From positions 1 to 27,773 of IMG/VR virus record IMGVR_UViG_2531839178_000008: 27,773 bases of DNA; one strand, given 5' to 3'. This document shows, piece by piece, positions 814 to 27,646 of this stretch (positions within the stretch are counted from its first letter, which is position 1; every line of letters starts with the position of its first letter). Position numbers and translations under genes: made by a program. Below the pieces are notes generated by a model that made no database searches, was not told where the DNA came from, and saw only the letters and a list, made by a program, of their open reading frames with translations. Source of the stretch: a virus. Its lineage: Duplodnaviria; Heunggongvirae; Uroviricota; Caudoviricetes.

Positions 814-1211
814 TTATGCCTCCGATTCCCGGATGTCACCCAAATCAACGCTACAATGCCAACCAGTGCAACGAGCGCAAAACTATCAAGCATCTCCAAC
901 CTCTTTAACGGTAACTGTCTGTGCCTCCAGTTCTGCTATGCGCTTTTCTGAGGCTTCAAGTAACGCCTGCTTATCGCGTAGCGCTTCTTCCAGTTCAGCA
1001 ACATGGCATTCACTATCAATAAGGTTGTTCTCTGCTGCTTCCAGCTCAACACGCAACTTCCCTACCGTTAGCGCAATTTCCTCGTTCTCCTGATCGCGGC
1101 TTTTGATGTATTGCAGGTTTCTTTCCCGTTCATCCAGTAGTGCCAGCGCAACATTTGGATTAAAAGCAGCAATAAATTCAGCGTTTGCATAAGCCTGAGC
1201 ATCTGTTTCAA

Positions 1212-2133
1212 CTAGGCTGTGTCCCTTAATCATCTGAGCTATAGTAACTGTCTGTTTACACAACATATTGAACTATGGCTCGCTACGACCTTCCCGATGA
1301 GGCATGGACCATCATCAAGCCCCTGTTACCTCCTGAACCCGCCACACCACGGGCCGGACGCCCATGGGCTGAGCACCGTAAAATCATCAATGGCATGTTC
1401 TGGGTGTTATGTTCCGGTGCACCATGGCGCGATTTACCCGAACGATATGGGTCATGGAAAACTGTTTATAACCGCTTTAACCGATGGTCAAAGTCAGGCG
1501 TGATTAATATTATTTTCAACAGGTTGCTTTCGCTACTTGATGCAAACGGCTTTATTGACTGGTCTGCCACCGCGCTGGATGGCAGTAATATCCGGGCGCT
1601 GAAATGTGCCGCCGGTGCTCAAAAAAACATCCCGATATCGACGGAGATAATGGGCTGGGTCGCTCTCGCGGCGGTTTTGGCACCAAAATCCATCTGGCAA
1701 CAGACGGAAGTGGCCTCCCGTTAAATATCGTGCTAAGCCCCGGACAAGCTCATGAAAGCCAGTTCGCGCAACGACTTCTGGACGGGATTGGCGTTCAGCG
1801 TCAGAACGGCAGCATGAAACGCCGTGGACATGCGGTACTGGCTGATAAAGCGTATTCAGGGCGCGCATTGCGCAACGAGCTGAAAAATAACGGTATAAAG
1901 GCAGTAATCCCCCGAAAGTCAAATGAGAAAATGGCATCGGATGGACGTGCACAGCTTGATCGTGATGCGTACTGCAATCGTAATGTCGTTGAACGGTGCT
2001 TTGGGCGGCTGAAAGAATATCGCCGCATCGCCACGCGTTACGACAAAACGGCGAGAAATTACCTGGCGATGGTGAAACTGGGCTGCATCCGACTCTTTTA
2101 TCAACGCTTACGTAATTAAGGGACACAGCCTAG
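1212..2133. mobile_element. IS5-family insertion sequence (IS427-group-like), about 0.92 kb
   Basis: Perfect 19-bp terminal inverted repeats CTAGGCTGTGTCCCTTAAT at 1212..1230 and 2115..2133 (reverse complement); two overlapping transposase frames inside. Exact ends are ambiguous because CTAG is palindromic (4-bp CTAG or 2-bp TA duplication). Confidence 0.85.
1275..2119 (+). CDS. IS transposase OrfAB (orfA 1275..1724, orfB frame to 2119) with a putative programmed -1 frameshift
   Basis: orfA N-terminus MARYDLPDEAWTIIKPLLPP resembles the DUF4096-type N-terminus of IS5-family transposases; orfB has a DDE-type C-terminus (RYDKTARNYLAMVKLGCIRL). orfB is in the -1 frame relative to orfA and the overlap contains an A7 slippery run at 1621..1627. 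Confidence 0.75.
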
Positions 2134-2303
2134 GCAGTTAACGTGACATTCCGCAATCACACCACCGGGTTCTCCTTTCCATTTTTGACAAACAAAAACT
2201 CCTGTTAAATTGCCATGCCGATTAACAGATGTATGCCCTACGATGTAGCTTCCTTTAGTTGCTTTTTCTGCCTTGGCACGCAGTGCCTGATAGTCAATCT
2301 TGC

Positions 2304-24019: not shown

Positions 24020-25559
24020 TGTGGCCGTTTAAACGAAAAGAACCGTCAGCGCCGGCGGTACCGGACAAACAACCTGAACCACAGCCACCGGAAATTAACG
24101 ATGAGGTGATCGCTTCCGTCCGGCAGAAACCACGGAGGGAGTTTGTTCGCTATGAGCCACCACCGGGCGTTATCCCGGCACCGGTTCGCGACGCTGTGCT
24201 GGCAATGGATGCAACACCGTATGACACCCTGAACAGTCATTATCCTGATTTTGTTTATGGTGGTTTCCCGGGCTATCCGTATCTGGCACTTCAGGCGCAG
24301 TTACCGGAGTACCGGCGTATGGTCAGTGTGCTTGCCGAGGAGATGACCCGTAAGTGGATAAAGGTTAAGGCGGTCGGAGAAGGGGACGACAGCCACGCGT
24401 CACGCATAGCGCAGCTTACTGACGCACTGGAGCACTATAACGTACAGGACGTTTTCAGACTGGCGATTGAGCACGACGGCTTTTTCGGGCGAGGGCAGAT
24501 TTATATTGATGTGCGTTCGCCATCGGGTATATCTGCCTGGACTGACCCGGCGGAGCTGGGATCCGGACTGTTTATTTCCGACAAAAAATCCCGAAAGGTT
24601 CCCTGCTGGGGCTTCGTGTTATTGAACCCGTCTGGACGTATCCGGGTATATATAACGCGGATAATCCGCTGAGTGATGATTTTTACCGTCCGTCCGAATG
24701 GTACGTAATGGGAAAAACGGTTCACGCCAGCCGCATGATTGATCTGATCTCCCGTCCGGTTCCGGACATGCTGAAGCCGGCCTACAACTTTGGCGGCCTG
24801 TCACTGGTTCAGATTGCTGAGCCTTATGTTGATAACTGGCTGCGAACACGCGACAGCGTGGGCGATATGCTGCATTCGTTTTCGCTGAGCGGGATTAAGA
24901 CGGATATGACACAGGTATTAAGTGGTAAAAGGGACCCGAATTACGCAAAACGCGCGGAGTTGTTTAACCGTACCCGTGATAACCGCGGGCTGCTGATGCT
25001 GGACAAGACGAACGAAGAGTTTTTCCAGTTCAACACTCCCCTGAGCGGCCTCGACACCCTTCAGGCGCAGGCACAGGAACACATGTTCTTTGTCAGTGCC
25101 ATACCGTCCGTAAAATTCGCCGGGCTGAGCCCAACGGGACTGAATGCGTCGAGTGAGGGTGAAATCCGGGTGTTTTACGACACCATTGCTGCACTTGCCA
25201 CCCGTCTTCTGAAGAAACCGCTGAAAAAGGTGCTGGATATTATCCAGTTGTCTGAGTTCGGCGATATCGATCCTGATATCACGTTTGAATTTGAACCCCT
25301 GCATGAGCTGACGCGCGAGCAACTGGCGAATATCCGTAAAACTGAGGCGGAAACGGATCAGATTTATGAGAGCACCGGAGCAGTGACCAATAACGAAGTA
25401 CGCGAACGGCTGGCGACTGCGCAGGACAGCCCGTACAGCGGTATTGACCTGAGCGGGGACATCGAGATTGACGACACTGAAATTGACAACACCGAAGAAA
25501 ATCCGCCGCAAGGCCCGAATGCAGACCCTGAGGCGGATTTCACCCAACGCGGGGATTGA
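24019..25559 (+). pseudogene. portal protein interrupted by a single-base frameshift in an A6 run
   Basis: The N-terminal frame (to 24672) and C-terminal frame (open from 24546, listed from 24708) overlap; one extra A in the run at 24583..24588 joins them (...[28 protein letters not shown]...), giving a portal-sized protein of about 510 aa. Confidence 0.75.
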
Positions 25560-26289
25560 GGCCTGGTACCGCAGACAACTGGATAATGCCGTCAGTGGGA
25601 TGCACAACAGTGTACTTTACTGGCTGCGGGCTGAGTACCGTAAAACAGACCTCGCGCAGGATGCGTCCCCCGTTAACCTGATGCGTGGTGCCATGCAGCA
25701 ACTTGCCCGGCGCTGGCAGAAAAATTTTGACGAAATGGCCCTGCGGCTGGCGAGGCGGTTTGCCGGTGATGTCCTGAAAAACAGCGATGCGTCACTGTAC
25801 ACTGCGCTCCGTGATGCCGGGTTTACGGTTCCTTTCCGTATGACAACGGAGATGAATACCGCACTTCAGGCCAGCATCACGGAGAATGTGAACCTCATTC
25901 GCTCCATCCCGCAGCAACATCTCACCCAGGTGGAAACACTGGTCATGCAGTCTGTTGGCCGGGGACGTGACCTGAAAACGCTGACCGATGAACTGGAAAA
26001 ACGTTACGGCATCACACGACGGCGCGCGGCGCTGATTGCCCGCGACCAGAACAATAAGGCAACGTCGGTAATGCAGGCCGCCAGACAGCGTTCGGTGGGT
26101 ATCACTGAAGGTGTCTGGAGGCATTCCCGCGCGGGTAAAACATGGCGTCCGTCGCATGTGAAGGCGAACGGTAAACGGTTTGACCTGCGAAAGGGGATGT
26201 TTCTGGATGGTAAGTGGGTACTGCCGGGCGAAGAAATCAACTGCCGGTGTGGCTGGGAGGCCGTTATTCCCGGACTGGAGAAAAAATGA
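25519..26289 (+). CDS. head morphogenesis protein (Mu gpF / SPP1 gp7-like minor head protein)
   Basis: Position after portal and conserved C-terminal region (..[50 protein letters not shown]..); start uncertain (ATG 25519 or the listed TTG 25468). Confidence 0.7.
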
Positions 26290-27646
26290 TTATTACCGAA
26301 ATGCTGGCGTTTGACCGGGCATCGGTAAGGCAGTTCGATAAAGTCGGTCGCCTCCAGATTGAGCGCAGTAATCTCAGCAAGGCGAACGTCTGCGGTTATT
26401 TCGGGTATGAAATACCGGGGGCGGAAGCGCTGGGACTCGACCCCAAAAAACTTTATCAGCTTTACCGTGACCCCGATGAACTGCGCAAGGCAGTTTCAAC
26501 CTTCAACAATATTCCCGTCCTGTGCCGACACAAACCCGATTATCCGGGCGCGCCCGCGCGCGAGTACCGGGTGGGGACGACTCATGCCAACAGCGAGTTT
26601 GACGGTACCTATCTGGTTAACGGCATGTCCATCTGGGACAACTCCGCCATCGCGGGGATAGAAACGGATGAACAACGGGAAATCTCATCGTCATATGCCT
26701 ATGTGGCAGATATGACGCCGGGAACCACCCCCGACGGTGAGCCGTATGACGGCGTTATGCGGAATATCGTGGGAAATCATGTGGCCCTGGTCGGCGATGG
26801 CCGGGTAGGGTCGGACTGTCTTGTTATGGACTCTCTCCCTCAGGAGCTAAAACGCATGAAACTGAGTAAAAAAGAAGTGGCGGTGCTTACCGCGCTGGGA
26901 ACCTATCTTGCGCCGCGTCTGGCGCAGGATGCGGCTCCCGGGGATTTGTTACGCCTGATGGCGCAGTATAAGCGTCCGGCAGCTATCGCCAGCGCGGTAA
27001 AAACTGCTTACAGCGAACGGCTGGCACAGGATATGGATATTGAACCGGCGGAGCTGGCGCAACTGATGGAATCAGCAGAAGCCGTACCGGAGCTGGTCGG
27101 GGATGATGATACCGGGTTAACTGACGAGTCGAAGGCATTTGATACCGACAGCCCGATGGAAAGTGTACTGGCGTTGCTGTCCGGCAAAGTTCCTGATGAT
27201 GTGCTGGAAAAAATTAAATCCGCACTGTCTCCGACAACCGACGAAGCCCCCGAAACAAAAGAGGCTGATGTGAAACCCGACGATGTGAAAGTCGATAAAC
27301 CTGCGATGGATGCAGCAATCAGGCTGGCAACTGACCAGGCAACGAAACGGGCTGCTGAAAATTTCCGCGCCGTCCGTGTGGCTGAAGCTGAAGTGCGACC
27401 GCTGATTGGCGATGTGGTGGCGATGTGGTGGCGATGGACTGCGCCGAAGATGTTTACCGTACCGCGCTGGAACAGACGGGGATCGATATTCAGGGTATTC
27501 ACCCCGGTGCGTACCGCAGCATGGTGAAGTTTGCCGTTGAGCAGAAGCAGACGGCCAAATCCTCTCCCCGTGTGGCGATGGATCAGGCCAGCGCATCGAC
27601 GTTTGCGGCAGATTTCCCCGGTGCAAAACTGAAACGAGGTTACTGA
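26286..27646 (+). pseudogene. DUF2213-like head protein (putative scaffold/protease) with its C-terminus frameshifted by an 11-bp tandem duplication
   Basis: N-terminal [35 protein letters not shown]...[12 protein letters not shown] fits DUF2213-type head proteins; removing one 11-bp copy joins the main frame to the 27425..27646 frame (...[22 protein letters not shown]...KLKRGY). Confidence 0.6.
27409..27430. repeat. 11-bp direct tandem duplication (GCGATGTGGTG x2, partial third copy GCGATGG)
   Basis: Copies at 27409..27419 and 27420..27430, partial copy at 27431..27437. Confidence 0.85.

Follow-up and report, generated by a model that had tools for sequence, protein, structure and literature searches.

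Erosion of prophages by insertion sequence (IS) elements and frameshifts is a well-known feature of the genomes of Shigella and of enteroinvasive Escherichia coli (EIEC). The cryptic prophages of E. coli K-12 (DLP12, Rac, Qin, and e14) and the Shigella prophage remnants have been immobilised by IS elements, frameshifts, and deletions, with some accessory genes being kept. The 27,773 nucleotide virus record IMGVR_UViG_2531839178_000008, referred to here as the window, is the entire contig AKNA01000005.1 of the Shigella boydii 965-58 draft genome (GCA_000268145.1). It carries part of a lambdoid prophage that is far less eroded than the K-12 cryptic prophages and Shigella remnants: its five lesions are point-like, nothing large is deleted within the window, and its repaired open reading frames (ORFs) are identical to those of functional-looking relatives. 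With a probability of roughly 0.8, this is part of a real defective lambdoid prophage in early mutational decay, which has been damaged by ordinary types of mutation and has lost virion production.

The original prediction, made from the DNA sequence alone, listed four gene-disrupting events, being an IS insertion in an Ea22-like gene, A-run frameshifts in the repressor and portal genes, and an 11 bp duplication in a head gene. All of these are present in the sequence and each affected gene is intact in a near-identical relative, but the count is five, as a frameshift in a gene for a protein of 177 amino acids (aa) has to be added. A further run of seven A residues had been placed at the junction of two ORFs. 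The run is there, yet it is not a mere junction, being instead a T8 to T7 frameshift that splits the 177 aa gene. The disrupted genes and their lesions are as follows.

886..1215, minus strand: C-terminal part of the Ead/Ea22-like gene (PF13935 Ead_Ea22 on the fragment)
1212..1215: left copy of the CTAG target-site duplication
1216..2129, plus strand: IS5-family element (ISSfl7-like), 914 bp, from its inverted repeats, NCBIfam, and copy identity
2130..2133: right copy of the CTAG target-site duplication
2134..2340, minus strand: N-terminal part of the Ead/Ea22-like gene (PF13935 on a 63 aa gene call)
7625..8157, minus strand: 177 aa gene (PHROG 2602), split into 121 aa and 63 aa ORFs, downstream of the repressor and DUF3024 genes
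7830..7836, minus strand: T7 run in the 177 aa gene (A7 on the coding strand), with 8 in E. coli FDAARGOS_944 (locus L001) and intact relatives
8726..9432, minus strand: cI-type repressor gene (HTH_3 and Peptidase_S24), split
9150..9156, minus strand: T7 run in the repressor gene (A7 on the coding strand), T8 in the intact relative FDAARGOS_944
24019..25559, plus strand: portal gene (Phage_portal_3/DUF1073), 513 aa when intact, split into 217 aa and 283 aa ORFs
24577..24582, plus strand: A6 run in the portal gene, the frame breaking after about residue 188 of 513
26286..27527, plus strand: DUF2213 gene (PHROG 2229 'head maturation protease'), 449 aa when intact, here 413 aa
27396-27406 and 27407-27417, plus strand: tandem copies of the 11 bp TGGCGATGTGG

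The products of the disrupted genes are among the GenBank proteins EIQ36478-EIQ36519 of S. boydii 965-58, by exact sequence match. A comparison with intact relatives had been proposed as a check, and it bears the lesions out: repair of a single event gives proteins 100% identical to those of relatives that are at least 99% identical. Repair in silico restores a DUF2213 protein of 449 aa, a portal of 513 aa, and the 177 aa protein, each 100% identical to that of a relative, and addition of one base to the T run of the repressor gene restores a cI of 235 aa that is 100% identical to the protein of FDAARGOS_944. Because the repaired ORFs are identical to the proteins of intact relatives, the lesions are recent or, in the case of the 177 aa gene, an inherited allele. 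Over the approximately 19 kb that align at 99.5% identity or more to FDAARGOS_944 and to E. coli CFSAN029787 (L002), the lesions are the only indels, except for a C6/C5 difference at the first bases of the contig. The portal and DUF2213 lesions are the only indels against CFSAN029787 at 19503-27773, and there are zero indels against FDAARGOS_944 at 10684-15069. A block of 98% identity at 15783-19751 has four further 1 bp indels, all in non-coding or remnant DNA.

The original claim that the prophage can no longer make virions is firm only by way of the duplication in the DUF2213 gene. The portal lesion is disputed, and the two lesions in the Ea22-like and 177 aa genes, both dispensable, are uninformative about the making of virions. 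The mutant DUF2213 product has 380 of the 449 native residues followed by a 33 residue out-of-frame tail, so that the last 69 residues are lost. The alignment of the PHROG 2229 profile reaches the extreme C-terminus of the intact 449 aa protein, so that the part lost here is conserved in the family. In the parental sequence, TGGCGATG is already present twice, as 8 bp repeats 11 bp apart, which points to a slipped-strand origin of the duplication. It is not found in 13 relatives and, among the genomes examined, occurs elsewhere only in the Logan k-mer assembly of SRR059778 (contig L006). Together with the portal deletion, it exactly explains the 5974 versus 5964 bp of the alignment to CFSAN029787. 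The duplication is almost certainly real in S. boydii 965-58. A defective prophage is one with at least one inactivated virion gene, and the DUF2213 duplication provides this, the portal frameshift being disputed by L006. Judged from the sequence, the duplication by itself has most likely inactivated the head module.

The IS insertion in the Ea22-like gene can be regarded as real in this strain with virtual certainty, as its target-site duplication means that it cannot be a sequencing error. The original prediction had held both the insertion and the 11 bp duplication to be hard to explain as sequencing error, and this is upheld by the target-site duplication in the one case and by the reappearance of the duplication in SRR059778 in the other. 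The element belongs to the IS5 family, having a DDE transposase, terminal inverted repeats, and a short target-site duplication. The inverted repeats are imperfect, with 28 nt arms, including the CTAG, at 86% complementarity. Two overlapping frames (1275-1724 and 1604-2119), which meet at an A7 slippery run (1621-1627), encode the transposase, annotated as a single 281 aa product. The element appears intact. Both frames match NCBIfam transpos_IS5_3 above its cut-off, and DDE_Tnp_1 is found on the fused gene call. Copies annotated as IS5-like/ISSfl7-family are 99.8-99.9% identical and are found in up to 36 places in one genome; compared with these, the element has the same two-frame A7 transposase, terminal inverted repeats, and CTAG target, with no differences found. 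In FDAARGOS_944 the target site is uninterrupted and the alignment to the window breaks exactly at the IS. Removal of the IS and one CTAG in silico gives a single Ea22-like ORF of approximately 178 aa. The A7 run within the IS was considered as a lesion and rejected, being the normal junction of the two transposase frames and present in the other copies.

The frameshift in the 177 aa gene has a different history. The split T7 allele is present in at least 10 other samples, which include recent runs and the complete genome CP165564.1, in prophages with three different types of repressor. The allele is found mainly in records labelled as Shigella, and the 63 aa fragment is on 613 contigs, whose sources are named as Shigella flexneri and S. 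boydii. The intact 582 bp form is present in all six complete E. coli genomes and the three phage records that have the 177 aa gene. It is therefore very probable that this frameshift is a real, inherited, and widespread allele rather than fresh damage to the S. boydii 965-58 prophage. Beyond PHROG 2602, the 177 aa protein has no match in Pfam, NCBIfam, or PADLOC.

The two remaining frameshifts are less secure. At the portal run, A7 is found in CFSAN029787 and 11 other loci. The A6 form is also seen in the Logan assemblies of SRR7163918 (L005) and SRR061722 (L028), on different backgrounds of single-nucleotide polymorphisms (SNPs) and without the duplication. That the portal A6 is real in S. 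boydii 965-58 is favoured by only a little. For the repressor the odds are even. The 708 bp repressor gene and its aligned flanks are identical to FDAARGOS_944 except for the change from T8 to T7. The frameshift leaves a 117 aa fragment with 94 native residues, including the HTH domain, and a 23 residue out-of-frame tail, and the S24 part lies in a 134 aa fragment in another frame. The break is upstream of the candidate Ala-Gly cleavage site. In the record, therefore, the HTH and S24 domains are not joined in one polypeptide as they are in an autocleavable repressor of the LexA/cI type, whereas they are so joined in the intact relative. The run is T7 in the early contig of SRR059778 (L008) and in SRR094061 (L014), T8 in locus L016, and T9 in ERR15561420 (L031). 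A promoter scan of the cI-cro intergenic region found no compensating change in operator or promoter. At 9526, in the cro leader 18 nt upstream of the annotated cro start, the window has a private A, where FDAARGOS_944, SRR094061, L016, and ERR15561420 have G.

Several observations weigh against reading the whole as a decaying prophage with five real lesions. The three one-base lesions all contract the longest homopolymers, and this is also the signature of undercalling in pyrosequencing and nanopore data. The late contig of SRR059778 (L006, SRR059778_98), which aligns to 20665-27773, has the duplication together with an A7 run, an intact 513 aa portal, and nine SNPs against the window. The contigs from SRR094061 and ERR15561420 share all 14 SNPs against the window in their alignment to 6444-10699, yet at both T runs the former has T7 and the latter T9. 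In phage lambda, the RecA-cleaved state of the repressor means induction, and by analogy the truncated repressor would equal the cleaved, inducing form of a lambda-type repressor. Without a working repressor, a prophage should be lethal to its host, except where the fragment is sufficient or repressor comes from a homoimmune prophage. The N, replication, Q, and lysis genes have no indels against close relatives; with the lytic genes intact and the repressor null, lethality is expected, which sets a prior against the repressor lesion being real. Finally, the window holds only a partial prophage. There is no integrase, as the contig stops before int/xis, and at the other end only the first 35 codons of the cement gene follow the head-protease gene, leaving the capsid and tail genes outside the window.

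These observations make it a serious contender, although held at somewhat less than an even chance, that the record is partly artefactual. The IS, the duplication, and the inherited T7 of the 177 aa gene would then be real, the repressor T7 and/or the portal A6 would be undercalls in a 2010-2012 draft, and the true prophage would have an intact repressor and possibly an intact portal. The co-occurrence of an intact portal with the duplication in SRR059778 and the T7 versus T9 difference on one SNP background both speak for this. In addition, the early contig of SRR059778 matches the window for 6.9 kb, with T7 at both runs, and differs only at two contig-edge SNPs and a G5/G6 run, indicating homopolymer ambiguity at the level of the reads. 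Also unlike SRR094061, ERR15561420 reads G7 in the G run, with one A more at 10155. Tract lengths at these runs vary with the data set, and this pair of runs is a clear instance of homopolymer calls that differ by sequencing platform and so make or mask pseudogenes. The cI frameshift is confined to 2010-era runs and the GenBank record, and an intact repressor would remove the paradox of viability. Against this, the portal A6 is seen again on other SNP backgrounds in two samples, including a run with a 2018 number. T7 in cI is common to the GenBank and Logan assemblies, and real replication slippage is likewise dependent on run length. The A7 contig may itself be misleading, since its TerL and Mu-F protein variants are unique within a collection of 15 billion proteins. 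This suggests that it is a mosaic of two paralogous head modules or prophage copies, rather than the truth about the strain. With the assemblies in disagreement at the repressor and portal runs, the original prediction of A-run frameshifts in these genes is correct for the record, but is not acceptable as fact for S. boydii 965-58, and its caveat that the sequence might be partly artefactual was well placed.

It is possible, but unlikely, that the strain has two prophages with head modules of 98-99.6% identity and that the window, or the Logan contig, is a collapsed or mosaic assembly of them. The lesions might then be spread over both elements, and the portal could be intact in one of the copies. 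E. coli CFSAN029787 does have two copies of the head module (L002 and L022), and the contig stops inside this module, at 27773. The uneven match to SRR059778, in which the late region differs from L006 by nine SNPs and the A run and the early contig has no internal SNPs, would fit such a collapse, as would the TerL and Mu-F variants confined to L006. However, exact look-ups surfaced no second-copy protein from the GenBank assembly, the TerL protein of the window is identical to the TerL of many genomes, and each lesion sits within otherwise perfect sequence.

There is only a slim chance that the frameshifts in A/T runs are tolerated or used, with RNA polymerase slippage or reversible changes in tract length restoring some full-length repressor or 177 aa protein, or with the truncated, non-cleavable DNA-binding fragment alone maintaining an SOS-insensitive immunity. 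The coexistence of a frameshifted cI with apparently intact lytic genes and the very common split 177 aa allele are compatible with this, and disrupted ORFs at slippage-prone runs can give full-length product (PMC1088944). Selection against slippage-prone runs is evident at 9 A/T in most bacterial genomes, with productive slippage at 8 A/T in some organisms only (PMC1088944); the T runs here are 7 and the portal run is only 6, below these lengths. The intact genes of relatives mark the single-ORF form as the ancestral one, and the two-ORF arrangement was not found to be conserved beyond near-identical sequences. The narrower proposal, that the repressor and 177 aa tracts are reversible length switches or transcriptional-slippage sites, is a shade less probable again; were it true, lysogens would switch between a full-length repressor that can be cleaved and a truncated fragment that is insensitive to SOS, the 177 aa accessory gene would be turned on and off, and both the 'dead' repressor beside intact lytic genes and the commonness of the split 177 aa allele in Shigella would be explained. 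Programmed frameshifting in the portal or DUF2213 gene is ruled out by 11 to 13 relatives with single intact ORFs, and a chimeric contig joining the early and late regions of two phages is ruled out by a collinear junction in the complete genome RMDEC465.

A real defective prophage with a damaged head module remains the preferred reading, and its history may be reconstructed as follows. The prophage combines a Stx-phage/P22-like early region with a myovirus-type head module of Mu-F, DUF1073, and DUF2213 proteins. An active IS5-family element transposed into a CTAG site in the dispensable Ea22-like gene, and replication slippage between the 8 bp repeats duplicated 11 bp, costing the head-maturation protease its last 69 residues. 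One-base contractions of the longest A/T runs account for the lesion in the 177 aa gene, and probably for those in the portal and repressor genes. With a truncated protease the capsids would be unable to mature, and the portal lesion, if real, would prevent assembly and DNA packaging. The prophage would then be fixed in the chromosome, with its intact accessory genes still expressible. The sequences show the lesions, what kind of mutation each is, and which other assemblies have or lack them, whereas the loss of function of each product, and of virion production, is inferred.

The window has a lambdoid layout, derived from gene calls and Pfam hits.

Leftward arm, first part, minus strand: ORF6N fragment, DUF551, Ea22-like, several small genes, Abc2-like, DEDDh-type exonuclease
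Leftward arm, second part, minus strand: SSB, Rad52-type annealase, kil, cIII, Nmad5, N
Leftward arm, last part, minus strand: 177 aa gene, DUF3024, cI-type repressor
Rightward arm, early, plus strand: cro, cII, O-like HTH protein, 968 aa Toprim primase/helicase, ninB, ninE
Rightward arm, middle: Gp49/HTH pair (minus strand), then two Ant-type genes, rusA, ninH, Q, tRNA-Asn, tRNA-Thr
Rightward arm, lysis and packaging, plus strand: holin, lysozyme, Rz, TerS, TerL
Rightward arm, head end, plus strand: portal, Mu-F-like head morphogenesis protein, DUF2213, start of the cement protein
9544..24019, plus strand: apparently intact rightward genes, cro to TerL (gene calls and Pfam hits)

Assignment to the lambdoid phages comes from the immunity region, in which a cI-type repressor with HTH and S24 domains is divergent from cro, followed by cII. 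Here HTH_3 and Peptidase_S24 are found on the repaired or relative repressor, and Cro and Phage_CII on its neighbours. It comes also from the lambda order of N_peptide, NinB, NinE, RusA, NinH, Antiterm (Q), Phage_holin_2_1, Phage_lysozyme, and Phage_lysis.

Stx-type lambdoid phages and the prophage beside ybhC in FDAARGOS_944 match the early region in blocks, at 95-99% identity. The early gene order is the same as in this prophage and in the Stx-type Escherichia phage Min27 and Stx2a_F403, running from Ea22 through the recombination genes, kil/cIII, N, accessory genes, cI, cro, and cII to the O-like gene, Toprim primase/helicase, nin genes, Q, tRNAs, and lysis genes. The window prophage differs in being without stx genes and in its late region. 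Its recombination module is of the Rad52/SSB type, in contrast to exo/bet/gam in FDAARGOS_944, where the homologous left arm runs on to xis and int beside ybhC. Prophages of EIEC-type E. coli, that of CFSAN029787 among them, share 98.4-99.6% identity with the late region (21800-27773). The TerS, TerL, DUF1073 portal, Mu-F, DUF2213, and cement modules of EIEC and Shigella (CFSAN029787, VL46, and RMDEC465) have an identical gene order and proteins identical to the repaired ones but, unlike the window, intact 513 aa portal and 449 aa DUF2213 genes.

These relatives are decaying independently, each by different lesions, in Shigella and EIEC genomes. Whereas the window prophage has its own IS and frameshifts, FDAARGOS_944 has its O-like gene interrupted by ISEc20, an IS600 insertion in its late region, and several partial coding sequences. 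Elsewhere there are IS elements around TerL and portal (L020), a deletion after TerL (L021), a split DUF2213 gene (L025 and L026), and a split capsid gene (SRR061722).

Two small features of the window may be added. At window 4-9, within the opening codons of an ORF6N-type gene that is cut off by the left end of the contig, there is C6 where FDAARGOS_944 has C5. A sixth frameshift would be one reading of this, and poor sequence quality at the contig end another. An 84 aa Rha-type N-terminal remnant (16817-17071, plus strand) is directly upstream of, and overlaps, a 256 aa ORF6N/ANT gene. It is annotated as a partial pseudogene in FDAARGOS_944 too, and is an older scar of module exchange shared with that prophage.

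The accessory cargo that the prophage had been predicted to keep is indeed intact, by ORF length and domain coverage, and comprises a Gp49/HTH pair, the DUF3024 gene, Nmad5, and the two tRNAs.

8347..8688, minus strand: DUF3024 gene, intact, between the repressor and the 177 aa gene (Pfam, PADLOC)
15110..15737, minus strand: Gp49-family (HigB/RelE-like) toxin-like and HTH antitoxin-like pair, intact, in the nin region

The DUF3024 gene matches the PADLOC candidate defence family PDC-S43 (E = 7e-42). It is directly downstream of the repressor, in a position corresponding to rexAB of lambda. The Gp49/HTH pair is inserted between ninE and the first ant gene. In FDAARGOS_944 a pair annotated as RelE/ParE toxin and HigA antitoxin is at the same position, the block that contains it being unaligned with the window.

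The Toprim primase/helicase (968 aa, 11229-14135, plus strand) contains a 342 aa insertion at 12342-13367, exactly between the Lys and Thr of the Walker A motif (GHGK|T). Its homologue in CP165564.1, which is 626 aa and 96-98% identical, is without the insertion. The insertion starts with Ala-Cys-Pro, ends with His-Asn before the Thr, and has a weak LAGLIDADG_3 hit; these features identify it as an intein that includes a homing-endonuclease domain. It is a candidate for class 3, whose inteins it resembles in its Ala start, in the His-Leu-Trp of block B, and in its Thr-His-Asn end.

Nothing in the window departs from a known kind, this type of prophage decay being already known in Shigella. The prophage is one more example of decay by IS transposition and slippage mutations, with little import beyond annotation. 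The useful outcome is the separation of the firm lesions from those that depend on the data set, and one-base homopolymer 'pseudogenes' in old draft genomes should not be taken for decay until they have been confirmed at the level of the reads. Should the repressor frameshift be real, S. boydii 965-58 would be a convenient strain in which to ask how a lysogen survives the loss of the dimerisation and cleavage domain of its repressor.

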